DNA of 42,412 nucleotides from an uncultured Ardenticatenaceae bacterium (GTDB taxonomy: Bacteria; Chloroflexota; Anaerolineae; Promineifilales; Promineifilaceae), in assembly GCA_964405285.1 (NCBI GenBank), contig CAYONK010000001.1, forward strand, positions 1 through 42,412, read 5' to 3'. This document shows positions 5,515 to 41,775 of this stretch, in pieces (position 1 is the first letter of the stretch; every line of letters starts with the position of its first letter). A program made the position numbers and the translations under genes. Below the pieces are notes generated by a model, which was given only the letters and a program-made list of their open reading frames with translations, was not told the DNA's origin and made no database searches.

Positions 5515-6228
5515 GTGATGATGAAAAGCAACGGCCGTTCCGCCGGACCACAATGGCATTCGATCCTGACCGGAGAACTACTGCTCACCGGTCTCCTGGG
5601 CAAACTTCTTTATACATATCCCGACCGCGATTTGTTGGCAATAGTCAGCGAGGAAGATTTTTTTGCTGAAGCTCCCTTCGCTGAGGCGCAGCCGGCCGTG
5701 CTAGAGGGGTTAACCCTGCTGCAAAAATGGAGCCGGGAGCAACAAGTCGCCGCGCCCGACGAGGCGCTCGACCAATTGCGGGCAGACTACACCCGCCTTT
5801 TTATCGGTCCGGGCAAGGTGTTGGCCCCGCTTTGGGAATCAGTCCATTCTGGTGAAGAGCGCCTGACTTTCCAGCAAGAAACTCTCGATGTGCGCCTATG
5901 GTATCAGCGTTTTGGCCTCGAAGCAGTCAACCAATATCACGAGCCGGACGATCATATCGGCCTGGAATTCGCTTTTCTGGCTCACCTGGCCGGTCGCGCT
6001 TTGGCAGCATTAGAACAGGACGATCAGCAGGCATTTAACTTCTTATTACAAGCGCAACGACAATTCTTGGCGGAGCATTTGCTGAGATGGGCGTTTGCCT
6101 GGTGCGCCCTGGTTGAGGAGCATGGGCAGACTGATTTTTATCGCGGCCTTGCCAAATTGGTTGCGGGTATGTTGACAGAACTACGTGACCGGACGCTGGC
6201 GGAATTACCAGCGGGGGCGCTGGCGTGA
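5515..6228 (+). CDS. TorD/DmsD-family redox-enzyme maturation chaperone
   Basis: YTRLFIGPG and EPDDHIGLEFAFLAHL are motifs characteristic of TorD-like chaperones. AGGAG SD just upstream. Confidence 0.8.
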   Translation: MMMKSNGRSAGPQWHSILTGELLLTGLLGKLLYTYPDRDLLAIVSEEDFFAEAPFAEAQPAVLEGLTLLQKWSREQQVAAPDEALDQLRADYTRLFIGPGKVLAPLWESVHSGEERLTFQQETLDVRLWYQRFGLEAVNQYHEPDDHIGLEFAFLAHLAGRALAALEQDDQQAFNFLLQAQRQFLAEHLLRWAFAWCALVEEHGQTDFYRGLAKLVAGMLTELRDRTLAELPAGALA

Positions 6229-7415
6229 ACTTATTGGCCTTAATTGAGCAGTTGGCGGAGGCTGCTGCCAGCCCTACAGGCGTCAGCCTGGATGCTGATC
6301 GTTGCTTGCACCGGCGCGACAAGCTGTCAGACTGCGACGCCTGTTTTGCCCTATGCCCAACGGGAGCCATTGAGCCGGGCAAGCCGCCGTCGTTCAATCA
6401 GGAGGCTTGCGTGCGTTGCCGGGCCTGTTTGCCGGTGTGCCCAACGCAAGCCTACCAGGCCGCAGACGAGATTATCCCGTTGCTTAAGCAGGCGATGCGG
6501 ATCAAAGGTAGCCGCCTGGAACTGGTTTGTGGGCTGCACCCGAACGAGGGAAGCGGCTTGCCGGAAGCAGATGCGGCTTTTCTGACGCGGGGTTGTCTGG
6601 CTGGGTTAGGCGCAGGAACTCATCTGGCGCTCCTGGCCCTGGGGCTTGACGAGATTGTCTTGCGCACAGACGCCTGCGCCGATTGTCCGTTAGGCGGGCT
6701 GCATGGAGAAATTGAGAAGCAGGCAACGGCCGTTTCCCGGCTCCTCCACACCTGGCCCAATACCGGGTCCGTTCGCTGCACCGGCCCACTCAACAGCGCC
6801 AACCTGGTCAAAAGGGCTATCCGCCTGGCCGATACCCCGCCACTCTCGCGCCGCGAACTATTTCGGCTGAACAAAGAACAGCCCCCCACGATCCCCGCCT
6901 GGTTGGAAGGTGGCAATGAAGCTGCCCGCCCCTCAACCAACCATCGCTTCATCATAACCGCCCTGGCGAAGTTCGGTCAGCCAGACCCGACGCTACCCGC
7001 TCCCGTTTTCACCGATCTGGGGCTGGCGGCCATAGAGGTAGATGGCAACACCTGCACGGCCTGCGGCGTTTGCGCCCGCGCCTGCCCCACCGGCGCCCTG
7101 CGCTTCACCGAAGAAAACCAGACGTTCTGCCTCTCCTTTGCCGCGCCCAATTGCATCGGCTGCGAGTTGTGCGCCCACGTCTGTATGCCTGAGTCCATCA
7201 CCGTCGAACACAATCCTTCCTGGGATCAGCTTTTCCCCACCGAGATGCCAGCCACTCTTCTGACGGGACCGTTAACGTCTTGCGAGCGATGCCATAGCCA
7301 CTTTTTCGCCAGAGATGACCAACGTTATTGCGCCATTTGTGAAATGAGGCGGCAGAATCCCTTTGCTTCGCTGCTGCCTGGTGGCTTTGACCGACAGCGC
7401 GCTGAACAGACGTAG
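6225..7415 (+). CDS. Multi-cluster 4Fe-4S ferredoxin-domain protein with C-terminal CxxC...CxxC
   Basis: Cluster motifs CDACFALCP, CVRCRACLPVCP, CTACGVCARACP and CIGCELCAHVCMP. C-terminal CERCHS...CAICE. GTGA overlap with the upstream gene. Confidence 0.8.
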   Translation: MNLLALIEQLAEAAASPTGVSLDADRCLHRRDKLSDCDACFALCPTGAIEPGKPPSFNQEACVRCRACLPVCPTQAYQAADEIIPLLKQAMRIKGSRLELVCGLHPNEGSGLPEADAAFLTRGCLAGLGAGTHLALLALGLDEIVLRTDACADCPLGGLHGEIEKQATAVSRLLHTWPNTGSVRCTGPLNSANLVKRAIRLADTPPLSRRELFRLNKEQPPTIPAWLEGGNEAARPSTNHRFIITALAKFGQPDPTLPAPVFTDLGLAAIEVDGNTCTACGVCARACPTGALRFTEENQTFCLSFAAPNCIGCELCAHVCMPESITVEHNPSWDQLFPTEMPATLLTGPLTSCERCHSHFFARDDQRYCAICEMRRQNPFASLLPGGFDRQRAEQT

Positions 7416-7433
7416 ACCACCAAAGGATTACTT

Positions 7434-8057
7434 ATGACAACTTTGCAAACAATTCTGGAGATTTCTGCCTCGCGGCACAAACATTTGTGCCCACGACAGG
7501 TGTTAGGGGCGCGGATGGGTCTGGCGGGTGTCGCCGCTCTTGGCCTGGAAGCGCCGCGCAGCGATAAACGGCTGCTCGTGTTTGTGGAAACAGACGGGTG
7601 CTTTGCCGATGGGGTGGAGGTGGCAACCGGCTGCACAATGGGACATCGCACACTGCGCCTGGCTGATTATGGCAAGATTGCGGCGACCTTTGTGGACGTG
7701 AGGACGGAAACGGCCGTTCGCGTTGCCGCCCAACTCGACATCCGGGAAAAAGCCATCCACTACGCCCCAGAGGAAAAGAAGCGCTATTTCGCCCAACTGG
7801 CCGGTTACCAAAAAATGCCAGACACGGAACTGCTAACAATCCAACCCGTGCGCCTGACAACGCCGGTGCGCCAGATTGTCAGCCGCGCCGGGGTGCGGGT
7901 AAATTGTGCCGCCTGTGGCGAAGAGATCGTCAACGAGCGAGAAGTACTGCGGGATGGGCAGCCATACTGCGTTGCTTGCGCCGGTTCCGCCTATTACGCG
8001 CCGGAAGAACTGCTCTTTGTCGTGGAGGCCAGGACCCCCCATTTTTTAGAGAGATAG
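7434..8057 (+). CDS. FmdE-family protein with C-terminal zinc ribbon
   Basis: HLCPRQVLGARMG, ETDGCFADGVEVATGCTMGHRTL and DYGKIAATFVD match the FmdE domain pattern. CAACGEE...YCVACAG is the zinc ribbon. AAAGGA SD upstream. Confidence 0.75.
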   Translation: MTTLQTILEISASRHKHLCPRQVLGARMGLAGVAALGLEAPRSDKRLLVFVETDGCFADGVEVATGCTMGHRTLRLADYGKIAATFVDVRTETAVRVAAQLDIREKAIHYAPEEKKRYFAQLAGYQKMPDTELLTIQPVRLTTPVRQIVSRAGVRVNCAACGEEIVNEREVLRDGQPYCVACAGSAYYAPEELLFVVEARTPHFLER

Positions 8058-8258: not shown

Positions 8259-8438
8259 ATGAGCGCTCAACCACAACCCGCAAAACAAGAGACTTTTTCC
8301 TGCGAAAGCTGCGCCATGCGCCAAAAAGCTGAGACCAACCCTAAATCGTTTTGGGCGCGGCTGTGGCGCTGGCACACCACCTGGTGCCCAGGTTGGAAAG
8401 CGTATCAGGCGCATCTGGCGCAGCAAGAAAAAGAGTGA
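8259..8438 (+). CDS. Small Cys/Trp-rich hypothetical protein (59 aa)
   Basis: ATG at 8259 is preceded by an AAAGGAAG SD. Sequence CESCAMR...RLWRWHTTWCPGWKAY. A strong terminator follows. The longer TTG start at 8193 seems less likely. Confidence 0.55.
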   Translation: MSAQPQPAKQETFSCESCAMRQKAETNPKSFWARLWRWHTTWCPGWKAYQAHLAQQEKE

Positions 8439-8478
8439 CCCCCCGCTGGTCTCTACTCATCCCCGCCATACTAACGTG

Positions 8479-8520
8479 AAAACGGCCGTTCTTCACCAGA
8501 AGAACGGCCGTTTTTGCTTT
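8479..8520. terminator. Intrinsic terminator built from two AACGGCCGTT palindromes (probably bidirectional, between convergent genes)
   Basis: AAAACGGCCGTTCTTC-acca-GAAGAACGGCCGTTTTT forms a 16-bp stem with a 4-nt loop and a T-tract. Confidence 0.8.
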
Positions 8521-8574
8521 GGCTGATTACCTGCCCGTTTGGTCCAGGCGCTAGTGGGGAATTATTGTGGGCAA

Positions 8575-10017
8575 TTATTGGTTGAAATAGATGAGACGAA
8601 CCGCTTTGTAGTCCCGGTCGGTGGCGCAGATACCGTCGCCATAGAGATGTTCGGCGTCATAGGCAATGCGCGGATTGCCCGCCCCATCCAGCGCCAACGA
8701 CGGCCGGTAGCCACCGTACCAATAAGAAGCCCCACAGCCAATCGGCGGCGCGATGGGGAAATCCGCATCCAGGACGCTCGATTCCTCGGCGATAACTGCC
8801 TGCCAGACAGCGCCATCACTCTGGCAGTCGTCCGTGCAGCGGGCATAGACCAGTCCGGTTGTGCCGTTGAATTGAAAAGCCAGATGGGGCCGGTTGTTGG
8901 CGTCTATGAGCAGGTCGGGGTGCTGGCCGATGCCCCGATCCAGTTCCAGGTCATAGCCGCCCCAATTGTTAAAGTCCAGGCAGTTGTTGTCACACCAGAC
9001 GTAGTACAGTTTCTCGCCGGCGCCGCCGTCAAACGCCCCCTGGTAGAAAGCCAGGCGCGGCCGGCCGCCGCTGTCCAGGCGCAGCGCCCAAAAGGCGTGG
9101 CCGGAACCCCGGTCGAACAGGGCGGCGCGCTCCCAGTTGGCCGGGTCGGCGCAGTTCTGATTGCACTGCAAGTAGTAGACCACGCTGGGGCCAAACGGTG
9201 TCGAAATATAGCTGACGACACGGGGTTGGCCGCTCGCCGTGAACGCCAGCGACGGGTAGACAAACATTTCGTAGTTGGCATCGCCGCCCTGGTCTAGCCG
9301 GGTTTCGTACCAGTTGGCCGGGTTGGTGCAATTGCTGTCGCAAAAGACGTAATAGCTGCCCCAATGCTGGCTGCCCTGATTGTCAAAGTAGATAAAGCGG
9401 GGCCGCCCCTGCCCGTCGAGGGCGAAATAGTTCTGGCCGTAATCCCACAGGCTCATGTCCACCACGTCGTGGTAGGCGACGTTGAGCAGCGACCAGTTGG
9501 CGGCGCTGGCGCAGTTGTTGTCGCAGGCGGCGTATTGGAAGTAGCCGCCCCCGCTGCCGGTTTTGAGTAAGAGGCGGGGTTGACCAACGGCCGTTAACTG
9601 CAATTGCACCTCCTGCACGTCATCGCTCAGGGCGATGCCCGACCAGTTGGCTGCCTGGCTGCAATCGGTGGTGGCTGGTTGGCAAGTGCGGTAGTAGGCG
9701 GCGCTCTCATTGTTGCTATCCAGGCCGAAGGCGGCGTAGGCGAGGTGCATCCGACCGCTGGCGTCTACCTTGAGGTAGGCGCTGTTGGTCTGGCGTGTCT
9801 TGTCCAGGAAAAGCGCCCCTTCACCGCTGTTGCCGGGCGGCGGCGGTGTTGGCGGCGGCGTCCCCGGCTTAACCGCTAAAGGGAGATAGATGGTATGGTC
9901 AGCCTCGGCTGACGCAGCCACGCTGCTGTATCCCGGTCTGCTGATAGCCAGTCCGAACACGAAGAGGGTCAAGAAGAATAAGATGGGCCAATAATGGGTT
10001 GTCTGTCTTTGTTGCAT
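8575..10017 (-). CDS. Secreted/membrane-anchored protein with six Cys-x2-3-C-x4-ANW repeats (propeller-like)
   Basis: ATG at 10017 follows an AGGAG SD, which I prefer to the tracked start at 10077. N-terminal hydrophobic segment WPILFFLTLFVFGLAI. Six roughly 55-aa repeats end in YY..C(D/N)xNCxxxANW. Confidence 0.7.
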   Translation of the reverse strand: MQQRQTTHYWPILFFLTLFVFGLAISRPGYSSVAASAEADHTIYLPLAVKPGTPPPTPPPPGNSGEGALFLDKTRQTNSAYLKVDASGRMHLAYAAFGLDSNNESAAYYRTCQPATTDCSQAANWSGIALSDDVQEVQLQLTAVGQPRLLLKTGSGGGYFQYAACDNNCASAANWSLLNVAYHDVVDMSLWDYGQNYFALDGQGRPRFIYFDNQGSQHWGSYYVFCDSNCTNPANWYETRLDQGGDANYEMFVYPSLAFTASGQPRVVSYISTPFGPSVVYYLQCNQNCADPANWERAALFDRGSGHAFWALRLDSGGRPRLAFYQGAFDGGAGEKLYYVWCDNNCLDFNNWGGYDLELDRGIGQHPDLLIDANNRPHLAFQFNGTTGLVYARCTDDCQSDGAVWQAVIAEESSVLDADFPIAPPIGCGASYWYGGYRPSLALDGAGNPRIAYDAEHLYGDGICATDRDYKAVRLIYFNQ

Positions 10018-10143
10018 GTGCCAGTCTCCTGATAAAGACGGAAGACGGGGGATGAATAAGCAATATCTCTGCTCCATCCCCCGTCTTCCATCATGTGTAA
10101 TTGATAACAGCGGCAGGGTAGCAAAACGGCCGTTTGCCCAGCG

Positions 10144-11334
10144 TTAGCCCATCGTTTGTAAAACAATGTCCGGTTCAAACAGGCGGGCGGGTGGGGCCAA
10201 TCCCTGTTGCACGGCGTAGAGCGTTTCTAGCACCGAAGCGCTGTGGAGGCTTCTTGCCACCACCCGCGCCAGATAGGGGGTCAGGTCGCCGTTGTCTCCC
10301 AGGTGGCGGCCGGTCCAGCGCCGCGCCTCAGCCTGGACCAATTGGTGAACAGGACGCAGGTGGTGGGCCAGATGACGAGCCAGGCGGCGCTGGAAACGGC
10401 CGTTGTCAGTCCCCAACACCCCCGCGCTTTCCCGGTCCTCGGCCAGGCAATTTATCAGCGAGGCCCGCACAGCGAGCGCGTGACTCACCGGCTGCCCCAG
10501 CAAAGGGTTGGGCAGGTAGCCGGGCAACGGGAGATGCACCCGGTCGGCGGTGGTGGGCAACCTGGCTGACCAGTTGGCGATGGACAGGCGTGACACGGCG
10601 GCCAATGGCTCCGCCTGCGCCAATAATTCCGCCAGGTCTGGATTGGGTAAGGAATGGGCATACGTTAAAAAGGCATTCTCGTCCAGTGGGGGCGGGTCGG
10701 CGGCTGTGCCCCAAAGCGCCAGGTAGAACTGACCGGTCATAACGGGCAGAACGACGGCCCCACGCCGGGGGGCGATAGCCGGTTCCTCTGGCTCAATGAC
10801 CAGCATATGCCAGCTTACCTGGTGGCCGTGAGGCCATTGGTAGGGGCGACTGCTCCCGACCAGCAGCGCCGGGCTGGGCGCAGGCAGGTTGCCCTGACCA
10901 TTGGCTTCGATAGTCAGCCCGGCCGCTGCCGGAGCTGTTTGGGATAATGTGGCAAGGGGGTGGAACTGAACGGCCGTTTCCCTTTCCAACCGCCTGCGTA
11001 TCGCCGCCAACAGCAGGGCCGGTTGGCAGCTGATCAGATCGTAGGCGGAACAGTAGCGGGGTCGCCAACGGCCGTTGACCGACCAGGCCACGCGCAGCCC
11101 CAGGTTAAACCGGGCTGCTCCGGCCTCAACCAGTTCGGCCGGAAGGCCAGGGAACACTCCTTCGAGCGCTGCCTGATCATGGCCGTTGAGCAGATAGGGC
11201 GGCGCGGCGGCAAGCGGTTGTTCCACCACAACCACTTGCCGGAAAAAGCGGGTCAGCGCCTGAGCCGTCAACAACCCGGTCAGGCCATCCCCCAAGACGA
11301 GGGCTTGCTGATGATGGGTAGAGTGCGTATTCAT
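10144..11334 (-). CDS. Hypothetical protein with N-terminal FAD/NAD(P)-binding Rossmann motif (start uncertain, 11334-11412)
   Basis: ALVLGDGLTGLLTAQAL...VVVVEQ gives GxGxxG plus an acidic residue at the end of beta2. I recognised no further family. Confidence 0.55.
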   Translation of the reverse strand: MNTHSTHHQQALVLGDGLTGLLTAQALTRFFRQVVVVEQPLAAAPPYLLNGHDQAALEGVFPGLPAELVEAGAARFNLGLRVAWSVNGRWRPRYCSAYDLISCQPALLLAAIRRRLERETAVQFHPLATLSQTAPAAAGLTIEANGQGNLPAPSPALLVGSSRPYQWPHGHQVSWHMLVIEPEEPAIAPRRGAVVLPVMTGQFYLALWGTAADPPPLDENAFLTYAHSLPNPDLAELLAQAEPLAAVSRLSIANWSARLPTTADRVHLPLPGYLPNPLLGQPVSHALAVRASLINCLAEDRESAGVLGTDNGRFQRRLARHLAHHLRPVHQLVQAEARRWTGRHLGDNGDLTPYLARVVARSLHSASVLETLYAVQQGLAPPARLFEPDIVLQTMG

Positions 11335-11628
11335 GAAGGGAGTGTAACGAAACGGCCGTTTGCCCATCGTTGGGGGAGCGCTTGGGGCCGGGATGAGGAC
11401 GCGGACGACCAATGATCCAGTCTGGCGCGCAAACTGGCTGTTATATTTTGACCACCCATGACGACATTATGGTGGACGACTTGTGGCAACGCCTGGCAAA
11501 CGCTGGTCAAACGGCCGTTGCGCTATCGTTCCTAACAAGACGCCCGAAGACGAAGGAAGAACGACAGAAAAGGCAAAACAGCCGCTTTATCTTTCGTCCT
11601 CGAGAGCAAATCGAAGGAGGACATTATC

Positions 11629-13371
11629 ATGTCTCGCACGCATATTTTTATTCTATTAGGAGGTGGCCTGGGGCTGGTGCTGGCCGCAATTGGCGGAGTA
11701 GCTTTGCTGGTACACAGCTTCTTCCTCATTGACAACACGGACACGGTGGCAGCGACCCCCATCGCCGTTGTTGAAACGCTGCCGACGCCCACCGACACCA
11801 TCACCCCGCCGACCGAGGAAGCGACGCCGGAAACGGCCGTTACGCCCACCCCCACCGCTGAAGCCAGCCCGGCTGCTGGCGGAGTGACCGCCTGCACCAA
11901 CGCTGCCCTCTTTGTCAGCGATGTGACCATCCCGGACAACAGCGACGTTGCGCCGGGCGCTGACTTCCTCAAAACGTGGCGGCTGAAAAACAACGGCACC
12001 TGCATCTGGGACGGCCGTTACCATCTCGTCCATACCGGCGGCCCGACGCTTGATGCCGTTGTGCGGCAGATAGCCTTGCCCGCCATCGTCGCCCCTGGCG
12101 AAACGGTTGACGTCAGCGTGCAGATGAGATCGCCCGTGACGCCCGGCGTTTATCAGAGCAATTGGATATTGGAATCACCCCAGGGCACGCGCTTTGGCGT
12201 AGGGCGCAGCGGCAGCGCGGTTTGGGTGAAAGTGCGGGTTCCCGGCGGGCAGCCAACAGCTTCGCCCACCACCAGCGCAGCCTGCACCAATGCGGCCACC
12301 TTTGTCGCCGATATTTCGATTCCCGATGACAGTGAAATCCCCACCGGGGCATCGTTTATCAAGACGTGGCGCATTCGCAACAGCGGGACTTGCACCTGGG
12401 ACGGCCGTTACAAACTGGCCCACGTAGATGGTCATCTGCTGGGCGCGGTGGTGGGGCAAATGGCGCTGCCCGCCAGCGTGGCCCCCGGCCAGACCATTGA
12501 CTTGAGTGTGCAGTTGACGGCCCCGACCGCAGCGGGCAGCTACCGGGGCGATTGGAAATTGGTCACGCCGCAAAACAATCTGTTTGGCCTGGGCAGCAGC
12601 CATGCCCCCTTGTGGGTCAAAATTAAGGCGTTCAGCACGCCCACGCAAGATGGCTCCATCTCCGGTCTGGTGTACCAGGATCAGGATGAAAACGGCCGTT
12701 ACGACAACGGTGAACCCCTGATGGGGAGCCGTGAAGTGTGGCTCATTGAGGGCACGGCCTGCCACGTATTGCAAAATGCGACCCAGACGACCTGGAGCGG
12801 CACAGACGGCCGTTATTGGTTCAACGGCCGTTTCAGCGGCAGCTACTGTGTGGGCTTGATGGGCAGCGACGGTTTGTTGGAAGACGTAACGGCCGTTACC
12901 GTGACCAGCGGCCAGACCGTCACCAATGCCAACCTGCGCGCCTTGATCCCCAATGGCTCCATCAGCGGCTACCTATGGGATGACTCCTGTGTGACGGCAG
13001 AAAACGGGGAGATATTGGCCGGGAACTGCGTCATGGACGGCAATGGCGTGTACCACGCCGACGGCATGATCCAGCCCACGGAAAGCTACATCGCCGGTGT
13101 AACCATCTCGCTGCGCCCCGGCTCTTGCACCAACAACAGCGGCGGGACGGTAGGCGCGGTGACAAACAGCAACGGCCGTTACACCTTCGCCAACCTGAAT
13201 CCGGGCGTCTACTGCGTCTCCATGAACGCCGCCTCACCGGAAAACGTCCCCCTGCTGCTGCCCGGCGATTGGACCTTCCCCGCCAGAGGCATCTGGTATC
13301 ACCAGATCACCCTGGCTCCCGGCGAGCATCTGCCGGTAGTCAACTTCGGTTGGGATTATCAGTTGCGCTAA
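11629..13371 (+). CDS. Membrane-anchored surface protein: Thr/Pro linker, two tandem NBR1-FW-like Ig domains, SdrD-B/carboxypeptidase-regulatory-like repeats
   Basis: N-terminal TM segment ILLGGGLGLVLAAIGGVALLV. Duplicated roughly 115-aa modules (ACTNAA.FV.D..IPD....G..F.KTWR..N.G.C.WDGRY) are about 50% identical to each other. SISG(L/Y)..D motifs also occur. GAAGGAGG SD upstream. Confidence 0.75.
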   Translation: MSRTHIFILLGGGLGLVLAAIGGVALLVHSFFLIDNTDTVAATPIAVVETLPTPTDTITPPTEEATPETAVTPTPTAEASPAAGGVTACTNAALFVSDVTIPDNSDVAPGADFLKTWRLKNNGTCIWDGRYHLVHTGGPTLDAVVRQIALPAIVAPGETVDVSVQMRSPVTPGVYQSNWILESPQGTRFGVGRSGSAVWVKVRVPGGQPTASPTTSAACTNAATFVADISIPDDSEIPTGASFIKTWRIRNSGTCTWDGRYKLAHVDGHLLGAVVGQMALPASVAPGQTIDLSVQLTAPTAAGSYRGDWKLVTPQNNLFGLGSSHAPLWVKIKAFSTPTQDGSISGLVYQDQDENGRYDNGEPLMGSREVWLIEGTACHVLQNATQTTWSGTDGRYWFNGRFSGSYCVGLMGSDGLLEDVTAVTVTSGQTVTNANLRALIPNGSISGYLWDDSCVTAENGEILAGNCVMDGNGVYHADGMIQPTESYIAGVTISLRPGSCTNNSGGTVGAVTNSNGRYTFANLNPGVYCVSMNAASPENVPLLLPGDWTFPARGIWYHQITLAPGEHLPVVNFGWDYQLR

Positions 13372-13474: not shown

Positions 13475-16400
13475 TCAAATACGGGCCAGCAGTTCCGCGA
13501 TTGAGGGAGCAACGGCCGTTTCCCCCATCCCCTTCTCCGCCAACTGCGTCACCAGCTTAGCGGCGCGGGTCTGAACCGGGCCGCTGCTGGCCGGATGGCT
13601 CTGGACCCGCTGCGCCAGGGCATAAGCAGCCGCTTTCTGCCCCGTTTGCGCGTAGAGGTCGGCCAGACCGGCCAACGCTTCCAGCGCATAGGGCAGGGCA
13701 TGGGCAGCTACGGCGGTCGCAAAGGCATCCCGATAGGCCGTTTCCGACCCGGCATAATCCCCCTGGGCCAGGCGAATGGCGGCCGCTAACGTTTGCCCTT
13801 GGGTAATGCGCCAGCGATCACCCAGTTCGGTGAAGATAGTCAGGCTGCTGTGAACGGCCGTTTCCGCCTCTTCATAGTCTGCCTGGGCCAGTTTGAGCGC
13901 GCCCAGGTTGTGCAAAAAGGTAGCTACGCCATACCGGTCGCCCGCATTTTGGGCCAGCGTCAAACCCTCTTGCAGCGCGGCTTCCGCTTCCTCATGTTTA
14001 CCTATGACGCGGGTCACAATGCCAAAAAATGAAAAACAGAAGACGCCCAGCCGGGGGGAGCCATTGCGCCGCCAGATAGTCAGGCTTTTGCTAAGCAGCT
14101 CATAGGCTTGCGCCGCCTGCCCCTGAGCCAGGCGCACCATGCCCAGAATGGCCAGGCTGTAAGCCTCGCCCCAATCATCCTTGAGCCGTTGGCTAATAGC
14201 CAGGCCCTCGTCGAGGGCGCTCTGGGCCGTGGCGTAATCGCCGCTGATGTAGGCCACCATGCCCAACTGGAACAAGGCAAATTGCAGGCAGCGCTCTTTC
14301 TCGGCGTGGGGTGCGCTCATCCGAATGTGGGGCAGGCTCTCATCCAGGGCGGTGCGGGCCTCGGCCATCTGGCCGCAGCGAAAATGGAACCAGCCCTGGC
14401 TGCCCAGCACGGCCCCCAACAGTAATCGGGCAGCCGGATTGACTGACTCCGTTTTGACCAATGGTTGTAATCGTTCAGTGGTATCGCTTAACACGCGCAG
14501 CCCTTCCTGGTTCCAGGAACGGAGTTCAAAACAGGTAGGATACGTGCGGGCGGCCCGGAGCAGCAGATCCCACTGCTGCTGCGCCAGACCCCATTCCCAG
14601 GCGACCCGCAAGTCGCCGACGCTGGTCGTCAACTGCTCAAAGACGAGGCTGCGCAGATGGCTGAACAAGTTGGCCTCGCTGTCGGCTAACCAGTCGAGAA
14701 AATAACGGCCGTGTTTTGCCGCAACTTCCTGGTAGGCGGTCGTATCGGCGTGCAGCCGTTCCCCCGCATATTGGCGGATCAGCTCGTGCAGACTGTAGCG
14801 GTCTGGTCCCTGACGGCGCAGCAACGATTTGTCAATCAGGCTGGATAACAGCGGCAGCGCCGCCTCGGCCACGGCTGCGGCGGCCGACCGGGTAAAGCTG
14901 CCCTGAAAAATGGTCAAAGCCTGTAATCGTTGCCGTTCGGCGGGTGTCAGCAGCGCCCAGGATTGGTCAAACACGGCGCGCAAGTTCTGGTGCTGCGCCG
15001 GGATATTGCGCGTGCTGACTACTAGAAAATCGAGGCTTTGCTCGATCTCCTGAGCAATCTCAGCGCAGGAAAGCAGCCGCGTCCAGGAGGCGGCCAGCTC
15101 AATACCCAGCGGCAGCCCCCCGACCAATTGGCAAATTCGGGCCACCGCCTCATAGTCGGCCGGAGTCAGGTTGAAGTTGTTGTCGGCGCGGCGGGCGCTC
15201 TGCGTGAAGAGGGCAACCGCGCTGCTGTTTTCCATTTCGGCGGCGACGGGCGCGGCCGGCAGCGTGAATTCGCCCAGGGCAAAGCTCCACTCTTCTTGTA
15301 GATCGAGCCGCTGCCGCGAAGTGACCAGCAGCTTGACGCCTTGGGCCTGGGCCAGAATGTCGGCGATCAGGTCTATGCCCTGAAGCAAATGCTCGAAGTT
15401 GTCGAGGAATATCAGCATCTCGCGTTGGGACAACAGGTGGAGCAGTTGGCTGCGGGTGTCGGGCTGTCCGGCCAGGGTCAGGTTGAGGGCGCTGGCGATG
15501 GTGGCGGCCAGAAAATCGGCCGAATTGAGCGGGCGCAGGGAGACGTAGGCCACGCCATCGCGGAAATGGGGTTGTTGGGAAACGGCCGTTTGCAGCGCCA
15601 GCCGCGTTTTCCCCATCCCGCCCGGTCCGGTGATGGTCAGCAGACGGCAGTGGGGGTCGGCTAATAGTCGGCCGATCTCAAGCAGTTCCACCGCGCGGCC
15701 GATGAAAGGCGTGGGGGGCTGGGGCAGCGGCCGGGGTTCGCTTGGGGCCAATGTCGGCGGCAGGGCAACCGCTGACGCGGCCTGCGCCAGCGCTGCCTCA
15801 TAGGCGGCCTGTGTGGCTGCTTCTGGCTCAACGCCAAGCTCCTGCGCCAGCCTGTCCACACACTGCTGGTAGACACGCCGGACGGCGCTCCGCTCCCCCG
15901 CCAGAGCGTGAAGACGCAGCAGGCGGATGGTGTGGGCCTCGTTGAGCGGGTCTTGTTGGGTCAGTTTTTGAGCGTAATCAGACGCAGCCTGATACTCCCC
16001 CGCTTCGGTGAGCAGGTCTACCAGCTGAACCAGGGCTGCCTGGTAACGGCGGGCCAGGTCATCCCGCTGCGGGATCAGCCAATCTTCGTAGTTGGCGGGG
16101 AGCAAATCACCCCGGTAGTGGGTGATGGCCTGCTCCAACCAGCGGCGGGCGGTGTGGGGATCGGCCGTTTGTCCGGCGGCCAGCAGCGCCTCTTCAAAGT
16201 CAGCCACGTCTAGCCGGTAGGGGAGTTGGGGCCGCCATTGCAGGGTCAGCTTGTCGGCGACCAGGTAGCTGTCGGCGTTGGGCAATGCCTGGCGTAGGGT
16301 GTGCAACAGGTAGCGCAAGTTGCTCAATGCTTGCGTCTCGGTCGAGTCGGGCCAGAGCAAAAAGGCGAGATGGCGGCGGGATTGGGGGGCGTCGCGGTGC

Positions 16401-16513
16401 AGCAGCAGATAGGCCAGCAAGGTTTTGGGGCGGTCGGCGTTGAGAGTGGGCAGGGAACGGCCGTTTATCTGCACATTAAACTCGCCCAAAAGGCAAATTT
16501 CTATGGGTTGCAT
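13475..16513 (-). CDS. SARP/BTAD-family transcriptional regulator with NB-ARC-type ATPase and TPR repeats (AfsR-like)
   Basis: N-terminal winged-helix plus BTAD (ICLLGEF.V..NGR...RPKTLLAYLLL). P-loop ITGPGGMGKTRLA. The C-terminal half has a TPR-like periodicity. Confidence 0.85.
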   Translation of the reverse strand: MQPIEICLLGEFNVQINGRSLPTLNADRPKTLLAYLLLHRDAPQSRRHLAFLLWPDSTETQALSNLRYLLHTLRQALPNADSYLVADKLTLQWRPQLPYRLDVADFEEALLAAGQTADPHTARRWLEQAITHYRGDLLPANYEDWLIPQRDDLARRYQAALVQLVDLLTEAGEYQAASDYAQKLTQQDPLNEAHTIRLLRLHALAGERSAVRRVYQQCVDRLAQELGVEPEAATQAAYEAALAQAASAVALPPTLAPSEPRPLPQPPTPFIGRAVELLEIGRLLADPHCRLLTITGPGGMGKTRLALQTAVSQQPHFRDGVAYVSLRPLNSADFLAATIASALNLTLAGQPDTRSQLLHLLSQREMLIFLDNFEHLLQGIDLIADILAQAQGVKLLVTSRQRLDLQEEWSFALGEFTLPAAPVAAEMENSSAVALFTQSARRADNNFNLTPADYEAVARICQLVGGLPLGIELAASWTRLLSCAEIAQEIEQSLDFLVVSTRNIPAQHQNLRAVFDQSWALLTPAERQRLQALTIFQGSFTRSAAAAVAEAALPLLSSLIDKSLLRRQGPDRYSLHELIRQYAGERLHADTTAYQEVAAKHGRYFLDWLADSEANLFSHLRSLVFEQLTTSVGDLRVAWEWGLAQQQWDLLLRAARTYPTCFELRSWNQEGLRVLSDTTERLQPLVKTESVNPAARLLLGAVLGSQGWFHFRCGQMAEARTALDESLPHIRMSAPHAEKERCLQFALFQLGMVAYISGDYATAQSALDEGLAISQRLKDDWGEAYSLAILGMVRLAQGQAAQAYELLSKSLTIWRRNGSPRLGVFCFSFFGIVTRVIGKHEEAEAALQEGLTLAQNAGDRYGVATFLHNLGALKLAQADYEEAETAVHSSLTIFTELGDRWRITQGQTLAAAIRLAQGDYAGSETAYRDAFATAVAAHALPYALEALAGLADLYAQTGQKAAAYALAQRVQSHPASSGPVQTRAAKLVTQLAEKGMGETAVAPSIAELLARI

Positions 16514-16638: not shown

Positions 16639-17004
16639 TTGGGCGCCCGGTATTATGGCAACGCGGTTCACCTGGAATACCAGGCCGCGAATAACGAAGG
16701 CTACCTGATCATCACGCAATCTAAGCATGGTTTCTTGCAGTCAGATTGGGATGCGGCGCCGGAAACGGCCGTTATCCCAGTGCAGATTGGCGATATACCG
16801 GGCGAACTGGTGCAAGGCACTTTTGTGGCCTACGCCGGTGCAGAGACAGCCGAGTGGAACTCGCTTGCGCCCGTCCTGCGCCTGCGCTGGATGCAGGACG
16901 GCATCTGGTTTGAGATGGGCCGGTATGGTTCTGCCCACGCCGTAACCCAACTGGACCAGGCTGACCTGGTGGCGCTGGCGGAGAGCCTGGCCGTTCAGCC
17001 GTAA
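16639..17004 (+). pseudogene. Possible remnant or short gene resembling the C-terminal domain of DUF4367-type (anti-sigma-associated) proteins
   Basis: The frame opens only at 16591 and has no ATG, only TTG at 16639. The translation YYGNAVHLEYQAANNEGYLIITQSK...VLRLRWMQDGIWFEM looks like a C-terminal domain with no N-terminal part. Confidence 0.3.
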
Positions 17005-17064: not shown

Positions 17065-17104
17065 AAAACGGCCGTTACGTGCAGCGACGTAACGGCCGTT
17101 TTTT
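17065..17104. terminator. Intrinsic terminator built from two AACGGCCGTT palindromes
   Basis: AAAACGGCCGTTACGT-gcagcg-ACGTAACGGCCGTTTTTT forms a 16-bp stem with a T-tract. It lies between convergent genes. Confidence 0.8.
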
Positions 17105-30096: not shown

Positions 30097-30183
30097 CCTT
30101 GGGAAACGTGTCCGAGGGGATTAAGAGGGTTTCATTGTTTGCGCGGGACATCTTTTTTATATCCCAGATGCAACGCAACTATA

Positions 30184-30401: not shown

Positions 30402-30410
30402 TGACACAAT

Positions 30411-31301: not shown

Positions 31302-31342
31302 GCCAACTTGTACTACAGGGTAACTGGCAAAAGGATGGTGAA

Positions 31343-32449: not shown

Positions 32450-32510
32450 CCAAGCGGTAACACAGGCGAAGAACCTGTGTTACCCTGGCTACATATTAGT
32501 TATCGCCTGA

Positions 32511-33611: not shown

Positions 33612-33680
33612 CCTGAACCCCCTTATGTTAACTATGATCGGTTTCTAACTGTGTAGCTTTTGGTTTTTTGTTGTATAGCA

Positions 33681-34451
33681 TCAGGCAAGGACGAGTTCGG
33701 GGCTGTTAAGCAGCAGCCGCGCGACGACGCTCTTTAACCCTTCGGTGAACGGGTGGTCGGGATAGTTTAGGCAGAACAAGGCGGCGCTGCCGTTTTCGGC
33801 GATGTCTATGGATAGGGGCAGCAGGGCCGCCACGTCGCAATGGTAGGCATGCTCAACTTGTTCTTGTACCTTGTCAAAGTTGTATTCTGGGGGAACTTTG
33901 TTCACAACCAGGCTAATCTCTGGCACACGCAGGCGACGGGCGACGTCTACTGTGACGCTGGTTCCCTGGAAATCTTGCTGGTCGGGGCGGAGAATGATGA
34001 CCAGGCTGTCGGAGATGGCGATGGAGAGCAGGGTTTCTTCGTTCAGGCCAGGATGGGTGTCAATGAGCAAATAATCTAACGATAAAGCGGCGATCAAATC
34101 CCTGAAGGCGCTGTGCATATCGCTCGCATCGTATTTTTCCCGCAAGATACGGGCGATGTCGTTGGGATCGAGGCTGGAAGGGACAAGGTGGACTTCGCCA
34201 CCCTGTTCTGACTCATATACTTTGTAGGCGGCGTCTTCGATGGCGCATTTGCCCCAGAGAAAGTCATTGAGTGTGTGGACAACGGCCGTTTCCGCCAGCT
34301 CGAAAATGACGTGAATCCCAGGAGATTGAATATCTGTGTCAAACACGCCAACCCGGTAGCCTTCTTGAGCCAATAGCGCGGCCAGGTTTGCCGTTACGTT
34401 CGATTTACCCGTGCCACCACGAAAAGAATGTGTCGAAATAATCTTGGTCAT
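33681..34451 (-). CDS. MinD/ParA-family (SIMIBI) P-loop ATPase
   Basis: Deviant Walker A FRGGTGKSNVTANLAALLAQEGYRVGVFDTDIQSPG and Walker B YLLIDTHPG. Starts 14 nt after the upstream gene's stop. Confidence 0.85.
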   Translation of the reverse strand: MTKIISTHSFRGGTGKSNVTANLAALLAQEGYRVGVFDTDIQSPGIHVIFELAETAVVHTLNDFLWGKCAIEDAAYKVYESEQGGEVHLVPSSLDPNDIARILREKYDASDMHSAFRDLIAALSLDYLLIDTHPGLNEETLLSIAISDSLVIILRPDQQDFQGTSVTVDVARRLRVPEISLVVNKVPPEYNFDKVQEQVEHAYHCDVAALLPLSIDIAENGSAALFCLNYPDHPFTEGLKSVVARLLLNSPELVLA

Positions 34452-34465: not shown

Positions 34466-36148
34466 TTATACTAAAATAAGCTGGTTATCCACGCTCACGG
34501 CGACAGCCTCTTGCTTCATGTCTTGCTTAAGATTCGTCGCAAAATGAATAACGTCATCCAGGTGCGCATCTAGCGCTTTTTTCGAGACGAAAGTGCGCAC
34601 GATTGTCACTTGTTCTGTTACCAGGCCGCTCTCCTCACTGCGCCAGGCCCCCTCGGCATTACTGCTCGTCGCCCCCCCAAACAGATTTCCCAGGAAAGAT
34701 AGCGTCGCTTTTACCTGCTTGCTGCTGTCTACCTGTTGGTCCACATTGATCGTAGATGGCACAAACAAGGCCACTGCGTGGTTTAAAGAAAGTCGGCGAT
34801 AGACTTCGTGCAATGCCTGGGTTAGCAGGCTATCAGGGGCGCTTTGTATCAAAGTCAATTGTTGCTTGTTAGCCGAGGCCACCGCCGTTTCGTCGGCAGG
34901 GATGACCAGGTGAAAACGAGCATCCAGATTAGACGGAGGCTGTGCGCCGCTTTGTAATGCCAGGACGCGCTTCTGACCGGGGAAAGAATAGGGCTGTAAA
35001 CTTGCCCAACGTTTCAACGCATCCTCCGCGCCATCCGGGTCACGAGTCAGAGTGATCAGCGTATGGGCCTGCCCGCGCAGACGAGACGTTATCTCCAGAT
35101 TGTCCCTGCTGCCAGCGTCGCAGATAATGTACTCATATTGGGCTGATAGATCGCTCAGAAGCATGTCCAGCTGCACCTGAATGGCGTAACTGCTTGGGTC
35201 AAGAGCGGCGAGACGATCGGGGCCATCGCTATAGGCTGTGATGTTAGCCTGCCCAACCTTCTTGTCTGACGTTGCCATCACCCTGCCGGGCCATTCATTG
35301 TCGAGTTGGTTCAATGACCAAAAAAGGACTCGGCCGGCCGTGTCCGATTCTGTTTGTTGATGCGCCAGCCAGGCCAGATTCAGCGCGAAGGTGGTTACGC
35401 CAGCCCTGGGATGAACGCTGTCCACCACCCACAGTTTGCGCTGGTGCTGGGAGCTGGCCTGCTGGCACGTGGTTAACTGTTGACTGAGGTGACGGTTAAG
35501 CGCCTGAGCAAACTTGCCTTGCTCCTGAATGAACCCCAAAAAGTCTGAGGTTGACCAGGCGAGCAGGGTGGTGGCGGTAACGGCCGTGTAAGTCGTTGTC
35601 ATCGGCGTTTCGCTTAGACCTTCGGCCAGCCCAATCCAACTTCCTCGATGCAGATAATTCCCCGCCTGTTTTGTTTGCAGACTGCGCAGCCGTGTTTGTA
35701 CCAGCAACCCTTGTTGTACCAGCCAGACCCAATCCGTTTTATGCCCTTGCCAGGCAAGCACTTCGTCTGGAAGAAGAGTGCGCTTTTGGCTTAGTTGCAG
35801 GAGTCTTTCTTTCGCTGAAGGGGGGAGAACGGCCGTTAACGGAACCTCCGTCAAGAAGGCGTCCGGGGTCTGCTCTAACAAATTTACAATCGCCGCCGGC
35901 ATATTCCACACCGCGCGGCGCTTAAATTGGAAACGGGCCGAGAACACCCGTTTCCCCCTACGCAGCTGTTCTACGATCCGATCTTGCCGCAACAGCCCGT
36001 TCAGCACCTTCTCCACTTCCGTCAGTTCCATTCGGGCCTGCGCAGCCAACTCAAAGATCGTCAGCTGCGGATGCCTGGTCAGGCACCGGAGAATGATTTG
36101 CTCGTCTGAAGAGACAGAGAGTAGCTCAATAGGAGAAATAGCCGCCAT
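34466..36148 (-). CDS. Multidomain protein: N-terminal wHTH, cyclic-nucleotide-binding-like domain, degenerate ParA-like domain, C-terminal GGAT...GAW domain
   Basis: The wHTH (SPIELLSVSSDEQIILRCLTRHPQLTIFELA) is paralogous to the 90-aa ORF upstream. The cNMP-like segment reads VLAWQGHKTDWVWLVQQGLL...GSWIGLAEGL. KLWVVDSVHPRAGVTTFALNLAWLA is a ParA fold lacking the P-loop Lys, and YEYIICDAG is its Walker-B-like motif. Confidence 0.65.
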   Translation of the reverse strand: MAAISPIELLSVSSDEQIILRCLTRHPQLTIFELAAQARMELTEVEKVLNGLLRQDRIVEQLRRGKRVFSARFQFKRRAVWNMPAAIVNLLEQTPDAFLTEVPLTAVLPPSAKERLLQLSQKRTLLPDEVLAWQGHKTDWVWLVQQGLLVQTRLRSLQTKQAGNYLHRGSWIGLAEGLSETPMTTTYTAVTATTLLAWSTSDFLGFIQEQGKFAQALNRHLSQQLTTCQQASSQHQRKLWVVDSVHPRAGVTTFALNLAWLAHQQTESDTAGRVLFWSLNQLDNEWPGRVMATSDKKVGQANITAYSDGPDRLAALDPSSYAIQVQLDMLLSDLSAQYEYIICDAGSRDNLEITSRLRGQAHTLITLTRDPDGAEDALKRWASLQPYSFPGQKRVLALQSGAQPPSNLDARFHLVIPADETAVASANKQQLTLIQSAPDSLLTQALHEVYRRLSLNHAVALFVPSTINVDQQVDSSKQVKATLSFLGNLFGGATSSNAEGAWRSEESGLVTEQVTIVRTFVSKKALDAHLDDVIHFATNLKQDMKQEAVAVSVDNQLILV

Positions 36149-40820: not shown

Positions 40821-40851
40821 TGTTTTAGTGGTCTTATCAAGGGTATGGTGG

Positions 40852-41775
40852 TTATGGGTGATGTTGAGTGAGGTTATATTGATTTACCATCTGTTGCAGT
40901 GTTTTGTTTGTTTCTGTGGGGATTGTCATCCTTGCTAATATCTGCATAGCCTGATCGCGGTGAAGCATCGCTTGTGTTGCCAGATAAACGGCTGCGCCGC
41001 TTTGGAGGATTAACCGCCGCGCTGTCTCTTTTTTTGCTGGTTCGGTGGACTTGAGTAAAGATAATAACTCATCTTGTTGTGTTGCGGGTAAGACTGTTAG
41101 GGCATAAGCAATGGGGAGGCCATGCCCGCTGCTGATATCTAAATCTTGTTCTGCGGTGAGGTCGGTCAGGTCATCGTGAATCTGGTCTAGTAGCCCCAGA
41201 GTGCAGCCAAACTGGCGACATAATTTTAGCTCTTGTCTGTCTGAAGTGGCGATACGGCTTCCTGCCCAACAAACCAGGCCTAACCCAACGGCCGTTTTAT
41301 TCCGGGCGATCTCCCAACTTTGGTCCAGACTTGGCATGCGTATGGACAAATCATCATGTTGGCCTCCACATATTTGCAGCAAAGCGACATGGAATTCCCG
41401 CCGAATCTCCTGCGCAGTTTCAGATGGTATCGTATGCGATTCCAATTCGCCAAGTAAGTAGCTCGCCGTAAAGATTAAACCTGTCGAGACGTTGAGGGTA
41501 ACGGCCGTTTGCCCCGATAACGCCTGATGATTATCTTCAACGTCGTCCAACAAACGGGCGGCATGGCGTAACACGTTCCAAATCGTCACAATCGGCGCCG
41601 TTTGCTTAAGGTCGCCCCCATACGCTTCACAGAATATAGAAGGCAGCCTTGACAACGCGCTGTCCGCAGATGCAGTTTCGCCCGTCCACTGGCAGAGCCT
41701 TCGCAGAGTGGCAACATAATCTGCGCTAATTTGAGAGTCAGACCAAAGAGCGTCAATTCCAAAGGTTTCAATCAT
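40852..41775 (-). CDS. Polyprenyl-synthase-fold protein lacking IPP-binding basic motifs; ComQ-like peptide isoprenyl-transferase candidate
   Basis: Two Asp-rich motifs, LLDDVEDN and IHDDLTD, plus GGQHDDL and NKTA. GGDLKQ replaces GGKRxR, and no RRG follows the first Asp-rich motif. No Lys-rich C-terminal motif. The stop is 31 nt upstream of the kinase start. Confidence 0.7.
   Translation of the reverse strand: MIETFGIDALWSDSQISADYVATLRRLCQWTGETASADSALSRLPSIFCEAYGGDLKQTAPIVTIWNVLRHAARLLDDVEDNHQALSGQTAVTLNVSTGLIFTASYLLGELESHTIPSETAQEIRREFHVALLQICGGQHDDLSIRMPSLDQSWEIARNKTAVGLGLVCWAGSRIATSDRQELKLCRQFGCTLGLLDQIHDDLTDLTAEQDLDISSGHGLPIAYALTVLPATQQDELLSLLKSTEPAKKETARRLILQSGAAVYLATQAMLHRDQAMQILARMTIPTETNKTLQQMVNQYNLTQHHP

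Follow-up and report, generated by a model that had tools for sequence, protein, structure and literature searches.

A single 10-nt palindrome, AACGGCCGTT, recurs throughout a 42,412-bp stretch of DNA from an uncultured Ardenticatenaceae bacterium (contig CAYONK010000001.1; the whole of this stretch is called the window below). The question raised by this locus is what kind of element the palindrome is: a product of chance or base composition, a piece of a mobile repeat, an effect of peptides or codons, or a signal of the DNA itself. An earlier reading, made from the sequence only, had likened it to the cyanobacterial palindrome HIP1 and to the DNA uptake sequences of Neisseria and Haemophilus. 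We analyzed the motif in the window, in related genomes and in viral contigs. The results make it probable that the motif is a highly iterated palindrome (HIP), a genome-wide DNA signal of the HIP class, with the 8-mer ACGGCCGT as its core and the 10-mer AACGGCCGTT as its lineage form.

Abundance and boundaries of the motif

The window contains 36 exact copies of AACGGCCGTT, the number listed by the sequence-only reading; its list of start positions is also correct, except that 15580 should read 15581. Dinucleotide-preserving shuffles of the window gave a mean of 0.08 copies (maximum 2), and Markov models of orders 0–3 predict 0.05–0.22 per window, in line with the earlier estimate of well under one copy for a random 10-mer. 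The observed-to-expected ratios (O/E) are 780, 637, 282 and 165 for orders 0, 1, 2 and 3, respectively; higher orders are contaminated by the motif itself. The core ACGGCCGT is the commonest 8-mer of the window, with 48 copies (∼1130 per Mb) and O/E of 29–68 under the same orders, and 75% of the cores carry the A..T extension that completes the 10-mer.

The word has sharp edges. Only 14 one-mismatch variants of AACGGCCGTT are present in the window; 11 differ at the outermost positions and none within CGGCCG. The 9/10 variants that had been noticed at 12010 and 12400 are both GACGGCCGTT, with the core intact, and a third one is located at 12805. Counted against the Markov expectation, a check that had been proposed, the motif is in excess both in the window and in pooled DNA of the clade. 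The sequences around the 36 copies are unrelated, save for a weak symmetric tendency (G-rich on the 5′ side, C-rich on the 3′ side), so the copies are not fragments of a longer repeat. A dispersed family with longer conserved flanks, the outcome that the sequence-only reading had named as speaking against its proposal, is thus not what we found: the flanks differ and share no longer unit, and the copies are independent point occurrences.

Core density varies along the window, from 0.18 per kb in the first 5.5 kb to 2.4 per kb between 5.5 and 17.2 kb; it is 1.1 per kb in the lanthipeptide cluster described below, zero between 30.2 and 33.7 kb, and 0.57 per kb in the last 8.7 kb. At 20342–20356 and 35828–35842, a half copy directly follows a full copy, giving AACGGCCGTTAACGG.

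The signal resides in the DNA

Thirty of the 36 copies are coding and six are intergenic. Within genes the motif is read as xTAV in 19 cases, as NGR in 10 and as KRPF in one; the last frame, which requires CGG-CCG codons, is nearly avoided. The earlier statement that all three reading frames are used therefore stands, although their use is strongly skewed, and the peptides that it quoted (ENGRYD, ETAVTP and GKRPF, Table 1) are read correctly.

Two types of shuffling were applied to the coding sequence. Exchange of synonymous codons within genes left a mean of 1.07 copies (maximum 4), and shuffling of codon order left a mean of 0.085, versus the 30 observed. Because both procedures remove the signal, synonymous choice and local amino-acid order must both be bent towards the DNA word. 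In other words, the copies are written into genes, in all frames, by correlated choice of synonymous codons and amino acids, and the signal acts at the DNA level; it is neither a peptide nor a codon effect. The synonymous shuffle, together with the conservation of silent sites described below, bears out the proposal that selection acts on the DNA and not on the protein.

Distribution among genomes and lineage dialects

We scanned one genome per species (185,579 species, 596 Gb) for the pattern AACGGCCGTT-N(1-30)-AACGGCCGTT and obtained at least 120 loci. Since these comparison loci were picked for carrying two 10-mers, their 10-mer counts and their statistics for position −1 and the flanks are inflated. 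Among the matches listed, 101 came from ∼46 Chloroflexota metagenome-assembled genomes (MAGs). They are labeled "Ardenticatenaceae bacterium", Candidatus Promineifilaceae, Ca. Leptofilum, Ca. Leptovillus or Ca. Hadersleviella, and many others are "Anaerolineae/Chloroflexota bacterium" MAGs, whose sources range from sludge, soil and sediment to a dolphin mouth; in the NCBI taxonomy, the named genera belong to Chloroflexota; Ardenticatenia; Promineifilales; Promineifilaceae. The matches listed also included 19 non-Chloroflexota loci, nearly all of which hold the seed pair only, about what chance predicts for 596 Gb; two very short contigs have one copy beyond the seed pair. One of the 19 stands out: L033 (CALKWL010000057), labeled Gammaproteobacteria, contains seven 10-mers and nine cores in 8 kb. 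In this it resembles the Chloroflexota loci and differs from all other non-Chloroflexota hits; the contig was probably misbinned.

In nearly all of the ∼46 MAGs, ACGGCCGT is the top 8-mer or is tied with its own one-base-shifted overlaps, at 1.5–3 copies per kb. The A..T extension, in contrast, varies by lineage and is present on 12–93% of the cores: 87% in BC3.16 and 93% in the dolphin-oral MAG, versus 9 of 43, 3 of 24 and 2 of 16 cores in lineages where it is weak. This variation indicates that the shared and selected unit is the 8-mer ACGGCCGT, that the A/T extension is a lineage preference, and that the flanks behave like dialects.

Pooled DNA of the clade (772 kb) contains 1333 cores, i.e. 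1.7 per kb or 1730 per Mb. With the motif masked from the background, the pooled O/E of ACGGCCGT is 76, while the runner-up among palindromic 8-mers, CGTTAACG, reaches 2.8; the latter corresponds to the AACGGCCGTTAACGG arrangement. Among all words of the form xCGGCCGy, A..T is enriched 76-fold, half-matching flanks 2.8- to 4.6-fold, and the rest about 1-fold. Inner one-off variants of the core are at or below expectation (O/E 0.2–1.2). Outward from the core, the preferred bases are A (73%), A (46%), G (43%) and G (47%), symmetric on both sides, which gives ggaA-ACGGCCGT-Ttcc; beyond position −1, the flanks contribute no more than 0.17 bit. About 78% of the pooled cores lie inside open reading frames (ORFs), with frame counts of 605, 291 and 144, and 293 cores lie outside ORFs.

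Other palindromes are treated very differently. In loci L005–L123, GGGCCC (O/E 0.05), GAGCTC (0.06), CCGCGG (0.15), CCCGGG (0.16), CCTAGG (0.17), AGGCCT (0.18), CTCGAG (0.21) and CGATCG (0.26) are all very strongly avoided, a sign that restriction pressure may be heavy throughout the clade. Among 6-mer palindromes, CGGCCG alone clearly exceeds expectation (1.0–1.5 outside the motif). That it is spared while other GC-rich 6-mer palindromes are strongly avoided agrees with the earlier argument against restriction avoidance, and suggests that the site is modified or has some other special status.

An artefact of assembly or adaptors was ruled out: many projects, some using short reads and some long reads, independently produced assemblies that contain the motif. 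Hyper-abundance of the motif is a property of an uncultured Chloroflexota group, comprising Promineifilaceae, 'Ardenticatenaceae' MAGs and related Anaerolineae MAGs, plus phages with the same signature.

Positional conservation between species

Comparison with related genomes, which had been proposed as a check, showed that the sites are kept in place. The fetched loci yielded 24 cross-species alignments (66–80% nucleotide identity, 25.8 kb), in which 57% of the cores are matched in position, or 56% when the ascertainment seeds are excluded. For comparison, conservation is 10.6% for 8-mers within 48 nt of a core, 9% for 8-mers in general or matched for GC, and 4% for palindromic 8-mers other than the core.

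The gene at 11629–13371 of the window provided a closer view. Its orthologues were obtained through a homologous-protein search followed by look-ups; they comprise three distinct sequences of ∼80% nucleotide identity and one of 68%. Each ∼80% orthologue retains seven of the eight cores and the 68% one retains four, while any of the four bases may precede the core. At unchanged amino acids, third-position identity is 94–100% inside the cores versus 57–69% outside. For HIP1, conservation beyond codon effects has been used to argue for selection from positional conservation (Xu et al. 2018, PMC5861425), and our silent-site result reproduces that test on a small scale. The copies are thus held over long divergence, either by purifying selection or by a site-restoring repair bias acting on the DNA.

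The losses seen are few and mostly single transitions. The commonest is ACGGTCGT/ACGACCGT, a C-to-T change at the inner C, which also has the highest O/E among the pooled inner variants (1.21). This hints, weakly and from too few events to be relied on, that the inner C of GGCC might be deamination-prone, i.e. methylated.

Taken together, these observations rule out chance, low-order composition, assembly artefact, a mobile repeat and a peptide or codon effect as the source of the motif.

The motif in phage and viral contigs

The same pair pattern matched 32 stretches of IMG/VR viral contigs, ∼20 of which are at clade-like density. Contigs with terminase, portal and major-capsid genes have ∼2 cores per kb, and other IMG/VR loci have up to 3.7. 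ORFs of L130, L135 and L155 match phage structural families of PHROGs, and most of them hold several cores; in L130, the large-terminase, portal and major-head genes contain four, five and three cores, respectively. Two related phage contigs of 94.6% identity have 16 of 17 sites in common, with one mismatch in 136 motif nucleotides versus 7.3 expected (Poisson p ∼0.006). The process that maintains the motif is therefore at work in these phage or prophage genomes, too.

In another contig with a viral label, L151 (IMG/VR 3300033072_001034), genes for an MvaI/BcnI-family restriction endonuclease, an N4/N6 methyltransferase (SPPY motif) and an IS1595 transposase adjoin at 8314–10738 in motif-rich DNA. 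This stretch has no phage structural genes and may be a host island despite its label.

Copy pairs as terminator stems

As proposed by the sequence-only reading, two close pairs of copies fold into strong hairpins; the spans given for them can be refined to 8479–8516 and 17065–17102. In the hairpin at 8479..8516, the stem consists of the copies at 8481 and 8503, extended by four more pairs on the loop side and two A-T pairs outside, and closes a 4-nt loop (−33.9 kcal/mol, z −8.5). The hairpin at 17065..17102 has a 16-bp stem from the copies at 17067 and 17091, a 6-nt loop and AAAA/TTTTTT flanks (−28.6 kcal/mol, z −6.0). Each separates a pair of convergent genes, is preceded by an A-run and followed by a T-run, and is a bidirectional intrinsic terminator. 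The pair at 29610/29650 was rejected as a terminator; it lies inside the LanM gene, its fold has a z of −1.3 and the pairing is coincidental.

Across the clade loci, 33 of 116 close pairs have a loop of no more than 8 nt, and 23 of these 33 are intergenic. Some copy pairs have thus been co-opted as stems of bidirectional intrinsic terminators.

Comparison with known repeated motifs

HIP1, GCGATCGC, is one of several highly iterated palindromes known from cyanobacteria (Elhai 2015, PMC4390886; Xu et al. 2018, PMC5861425). It has palindromic extensions with nested methyltransferase sites (PMC4390886). In the HIP class, the nested site is recognized by a DNA methyltransferase, usually an orphan, whose distribution follows that of the motif, and abundance of the HIP class corresponds to O/E of at least 15 and 300–2700 copies per Mb (Elhai 2015, PMC4390886; Xu 2018, PMC5861425). 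The Chloroflexota motif shares the palindromic octamer with lineage-specific palindromic extensions, and both motifs reach hundreds to thousands of copies per Mb and O/E of tens to hundreds throughout a clade. Each is found in every reading frame as well as between genes, its sites are conserved between genomes more than codon and amino-acid conservation would account for, and it nests a restriction-type hexamer, CGATCG in HIP1 and CGGCCG here. The features of the class that we looked for (a palindromic octamer with extension, abundance, occurrence in three frames and in non-coding DNA, and conservation above controls, the last on a small sample) are thus all present, and the earlier parallel holds, although the sequence is not that of HIP1. 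Besides sequence and phylum, there are further differences: the Chloroflexota motif has no embedded GATC, and CGATCG is avoided in the clade; one-off variants are common for HIP1, whereas inner ones are not enriched here. Phage genomes carry and conserve the Chloroflexota motif, and its use in terminators is prominent. Full-text searches of the literature found no description of the motif and no report of a HIP in Chloroflexota, so that it is apparently an undescribed counterpart of HIP1.

The DNA uptake sequences (DUS) of Neisseria and the uptake signal sequences (USS) of Pasteurellaceae are asymmetric, occur in two orientations and make a competent host take up the DNA that bears them preferentially, through a specific receptor. 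Like them, the motif is ∼10 nt long, occurs about once per kb, is conserved at the family level with dialects, has skewed frame use and forms terminators from inverted pairs. Different from them, it equals its own reverse complement and has symmetric flanks. The earlier parallel with uptake sequences therefore stands for density, dialects and terminator pairs, and fails for the asymmetry. As it is its own reverse complement, the motif cannot carry polarity either, which sets it apart from the non-palindromic, strand-skewed signals of the Chi/KOPS type.

In Escherichia coli, the methylated Dcm site CCWGG is over-represented through very-short-patch repair by Vsr. Here, too, a short palindromic site of the methyltransferase type is over-represented and its one-step neighbours are depleted, but the excess is far larger (76-fold) and the specificity extends over 8–10 bp. 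Repetitive extragenic palindromic (REP) elements and miniature inverted-repeat transposable elements (MITEs) are likewise short, palindromic, highly repeated and sometimes terminators. However, REPs are extragenic, 20–40 nt in length and have a family consensus, whereas the copies of the Chloroflexota motif share 8–10 nt and lie mostly in genes, at conserved codons; the low flank information and the share of cores in ORFs given above likewise differ from a longer conserved, mainly extragenic unit.

Mechanism and alternative explanations

Three features point to a symmetric (dimeric) protein that binds or modifies DNA: the two-fold symmetry is perfect, the specificity is sharply limited to 8 bp, and the flank preference is symmetric and decays outward. 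The mechanism that we prefer, tentatively, is a methylation-coupled mark of 'resident DNA' for repair, recombination or DNA exchange. By analogy with the proposal for HIP1, a solitary methyltransferase would target CGGCCG, the restriction-type hexamer nested in the core; once methylated, the motif would act as a dense mark of resident DNA in one of these processes, and phages replicating in these hosts would keep the motif for the same reason. A further reading, possible but doubtful, is that ACGGCCGT serves as a 'self password' of this Chloroflexota lineage. DNA dense in the motif would be taken as resident by a symmetric reader, which would be an uptake receptor or else a factor of methylation-coupled repair or recombination, and phages of these hosts would be selected to mimic the password.

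Several points weigh against the assignment to the HIP class and against the preferred mechanism. The conservation tests cover 25.8 kb of alignments and one orthologue family, and positional conservation fits functional selection and site-restoring repair bias alike. The choice of loci with two 10-mers inflates the 10-mer and flank statistics, though the seeds were separated out in the conservation test. Per-gene motif density tracks GC content at third codon positions (GC3; Spearman 0.65, p = 1e-4), so part of the uneven spread may be compositional. The link to methylation is drawn only from the HIP1 analogy and the restriction-type core. We searched all loci for methyltransferases by tblastn with a hand-written M.HaeIII-like query and by regular expressions for C5 and N4/N6 motifs. 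The only hit was the MvaI/BcnI-type restriction-modification pair of L151, and nothing related to CGGCCG was detected; no C5-methyltransferase gene was present in the ∼1 Mb of sampled loci, a sample far too small to inform. No reader protein was found in the same ∼1 Mb either.

Among the rival explanations, a DNA uptake signal, the palindromic analogue of DUS or USS, survives best, and we regard it as unlikely. A surface or periplasmic receptor of a competence system would prefer DNA with ACGGCCGT, and biased uptake with recombination (molecular drive) would spread the motif and maintain it in the gene pool of the clade. Density of ∼1–2 per kb, lineage flank dialects, terminator pairs and positionally conserved sites all suit this explanation, as do the skew of frame use towards tolerable peptides and the lower density in low-GC, strain-variable DNA. 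Furthermore, most wastewater Chloroflexota MAGs encode type IV pili (PMC10746286), and preprints tie HIP1 itself to transformation efficiency. However, the perfect palindrome with its symmetric flanks does not look like the asymmetric uptake sequences, and the motif is under constraint in phage terminase, portal and capsid genes, where biased uptake would bring no obvious benefit unless these are prophages.

Somewhat less probable still is a functionless by-product of repair, in which a very-short-patch-like activity tied to a CGGCCG or ACGGCCGT methyltransferase would restore near-matches and deaminated sites. The absence of a cloud of inner one-off variants around the 1333 perfect copies favours it, as does the same signature in phage DNA that replicates in the host; the C-to-T losses at the inner C, with the O/E of 1.21, add the hint of a methylated, deamination-prone cytosine. 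Restoration, however, poorly explains an O/E of 76 or the spread of the 8-mer over varied contexts in ∼46 species, the loss events are very few, and neither a Vsr nor a methyltransferase gene for the site was found in the sampled loci. By the argument of Xu et al. (PMC5861425), positional conservation favours selection over neutral replenishment.

We consider it very unlikely that a dimeric nucleoid-associated or chromosome-organising protein uses the copies as densely arrayed binding sites. An architectural role has been suggested for HIP1 from its periodicity (Xu et al., PMC5861425); the perfect palindrome with outward-decaying symmetric flanks (ggaA-core-Ttcc) is a typical footprint of a dimeric binder, and the motif is genome-wide and independent of gene orientation. 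On the other hand, no candidate protein was found, density swings 10-fold between neighbouring regions of the window, and conservation in small phage genomes is not obviously expected of a host architectural site.

A dispersed mobile repeat of the REP/MITE type, or a side-effect of repeated peptides or codon bias, is scarcely credible and is refuted for the bulk of the copies: although two copies sit in a ∼110-nt repeat between small gene cassettes in L034/L005, flanks are unrelated in the window and in the pooled data, most pooled cores lie in ORFs in three frames, cores occupy orthologous codons of diverged genes, and both kinds of shuffle erase the signal.

The ∼110-nt repeat of L034 (1480–3070) and L005 (minus strand, near 5690–5860) is composite and was seen three times, 680–790 nt apart. 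Each occurrence follows a small gene cassette whose translations, inspected by eye, resemble a toxin-antitoxin pair. The repeat consists, in this order, of TACGGCCGTA, a C-rich tract, TGGCCAATGAAA, AACGGCCGTT, 23 nt and AACGGCCGTT. An Rfam search of L034/L005, and of the window, gave no match. The repeat could be an integron-like cassette array with recombination sites that embed the palindrome.

Gene context and copies in the window

The window begins with an operon for a DmsABC-type molybdoenzyme and its accessory genes (67–8057), followed by several unknown or secreted proteins, a BTAD/NB-ARC/TPR regulator, and a class II lanthipeptide cluster at ∼17–30 kb (LanM, a glycosyltransferase, DUF7005, HlyD and two ABC exporters). 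The remainder encodes ParA, two-component regulators and a polyprenyl synthetase. All copies of the motif are listed in Table 1.

The DmsA/DmsB/DmsC-like and radical-SAM genes (1–5529) contain no 10-mer and one 8-mer core, and the accessory genes directly downstream (NarJ-like, Fe-S and FmdE-like) contain one copy each. GC3 is 0.54–0.63 in 1–5529 versus 0.69–0.76 in the motif-dense block; the motif-poor, lower-GC3 stretch may reflect more recent acquisition. A scan of metagenome contigs with the Fe-S protein (6225–7415) found no relatives, and exact-protein look-ups for three window proteins gave no match.

The gene at 11629–13371 encodes a secreted protein with N_BRCA1_IG/SdrD_B domains and has eight cores in 1.7 kb (4.6 per kb), which coincide with recurring GTAVT and NGRY peptide stretches. 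Homologues of the protein are abundant among Chloroflexota metagenome proteins, and homologues bear the names Anaerolinea sp., Ardenticatenaceae bacterium or Chloroflexi bacterium. Together with the shared signature, these names suggest that the window belongs to the same clade.

Compared with L001 (10772–20771), the lanthipeptide locus (17150–33680) proved to be a strain-variable island. From 33681, the stop codon of ParA, to its end, the window is matched at 99.6% identity by contigs from other metagenomes; to the left of 33681, these contigs hold another cassette (P450, a second type of LanM, an NHLP-type precursor, DUF7005 and HlyD), in which only the HlyD and DUF7005 genes can be aligned with the island, at 69–74% identity. 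The ParA protein was found identical on many ENA and Logan metagenome contigs.

Table 1. Copies of AACGGCCGTT and of its core in the window (genes are greedy longest-ORF calls, strand in brackets)
Element	Position	Reading	Gene or region, remarks
8-mer core only AACGGCCGTA	3021..3028		sole core in first 5.5 kb
AACGGCCGTT copy	5530..5539	NGR	NarJ-like gene 5515-6228(+)
AACGGCCGTT copy	6725..6734	TAV	Fe-S protein gene 6225-7415(+)
AACGGCCGTT copy	7709..7718	TAV	FmdE-like gene 7434-8057(+)
AACGGCCGTT copies	8481 and 8503		intergenic, in terminator hairpin 8479..8516
AACGGCCGTT copy	9586..9595	TAV	gene 8575-10077(-)
AACGGCCGTT copy	10125..10134		intergenic, between 10077 and 10144
AACGGCCGTT copy	10395..10404	NGR	gene 10144-11412(-)
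AACGGCCGTT copy	10969..10978	TAV	gene 10144-11412(-)
AACGGCCGTT copy	11067..11076	NGR	gene 10144-11412(-)
AACGGCCGTT copy	11351..11360	KRPF (GKRPF)	gene 10144-11412(-); sole copy in this frame
AACGGCCGTT copy	11510..11519		intergenic
AACGGCCGTT copy	11832..11841	TAV (ETAVTP)	N_BRCA1_IG gene 11629-13371(+); core kept in ∼80%-identical orthologues
GACGGCCGTT, core intact	12010..12019		identical in four ∼80% orthologous loci (three distinct sequences); region gapped in L160
GACGGCCGTT, core intact	12400..12409		identical in 5/5 orthologous loci
AACGGCCGTT copy	12691..12700	NGR (ENGRYD)	gene 11629-13371(+); kept in four ∼80% loci
GACGGCCGTT, core intact	12805..12814		kept in all orthologues
AACGGCCGTT copy	12823..12832	NGR	single C-to-T (ACGGTCGT) destroys site in L158/L159
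AACGGCCGTT copy	12888..12897	TAV	core retained in L158/L159, mutated in L156, L157, L160
AACGGCCGTT copy	13171..13180	NGR	kept in all orthologues
AACGGCCGTT copy	13511..13520	TAV	BTAD/NB-ARC/TPR regulator gene 13475-16513(-)
AACGGCCGTT copy	13853..13862	TAV	regulator gene 13475-16513(-)
8-mer core only AACGGCCGTG	14705..14712		
AACGGCCGTT copy	15581..15590	TAV	regulator gene 13475-16513(-)
AACGGCCGTT copy	16456..16465	NGR	regulator gene 13475-16513(-)
AACGGCCGTT copy	16764..16773	TAV	ORF 16639-17004(+)
AACGGCCGTT copies	17067 and 17091		intergenic, in terminator hairpin 17065..17102
8-mer core only CACGGCCGTT	18359..18366		
8-mer core only AACGGCCGTC	19119..19126		
AACGGCCGTT copy	19822..19831	NGR	ABC transporter gene 18278-21253(-)
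AACGGCCGTT copy	20342..20351	TAV	ABC transporter gene 18278-21253(-)
8-mer core only CACGGCCGTC	21817..21824		
8-mer core only CACGGCCGTT	22832..22839		
AACGGCCGTT copy	23803..23812	TAV	HlyD-like gene 23581-24369(-)
AACGGCCGTT copy	24232..24241	TAV	HlyD-like gene 23581-24369(-)
8-mer core only AACGGCCGTG	24612..24619		
AACGGCCGTT copy	25331..25340	TAV	DUF7005 gene 24380-25546(-)
8-mer core only CACGGCCGTT	27209..27216		
AACGGCCGTT copy	27864..27873	NGR	LanM gene 26902-30096(-)
AACGGCCGTT copy	29610..29619	NGR	LanM gene 26902-30096(-)
AACGGCCGTT copy	29650..29659	TAV	LanM gene 26902-30096(-)
AACGGCCGTT copy	34281..34290	TAV	ParA-like gene 33681-34451(-)
8-mer core only AACGGCCGTG	35580..35587		
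AACGGCCGTT copy	35828..35837	TAV	cNMP (cyclic nucleotide)-binding protein gene 34466-36148(-)
AACGGCCGTT copy	41287..41296	TAV	polyprenyl synthetase gene 40852-41775(-)
AACGGCCGTT copy	41500..41509	TAV	polyprenyl synthetase gene 40852-41775(-)

Significance

HIP1 has resisted explanation for ∼30 years. To our knowledge, it has been essentially a single evolutionary instance, which is partly why an explanation is lacking. The Chloroflexota motif is an independent, sequence-unrelated HIP in a distant phylum, and it is also conserved by phages. With a second HIP that shows the same population-genetic behaviour, a comparative test becomes possible: genes for methyltransferases, Vsr, competence, repair or nucleoid proteins can be sought that are common to HIP-bearing cyanobacteria and Chloroflexota and missing from their HIP-free relatives.

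As the probably misbinned contig L033 suggests, the 8-mer can also serve to bin and decontaminate Promineifilaceae/Ardenticatenaceae-like MAGs, those of abundant activated-sludge filaments among them, for which it is a very strong taxonomic signature. It can help to assign uncultured phages to their hosts and to flag recently acquired DNA, and it may matter for making these organisms genetically tractable. If the motif does serve as a self password, it would represent an independent, convergent HIP/DUS strategy outside Cyanobacteria and Proteobacteria, and phage genomes would for the first time have been shown to keep such a signal through purifying selection.

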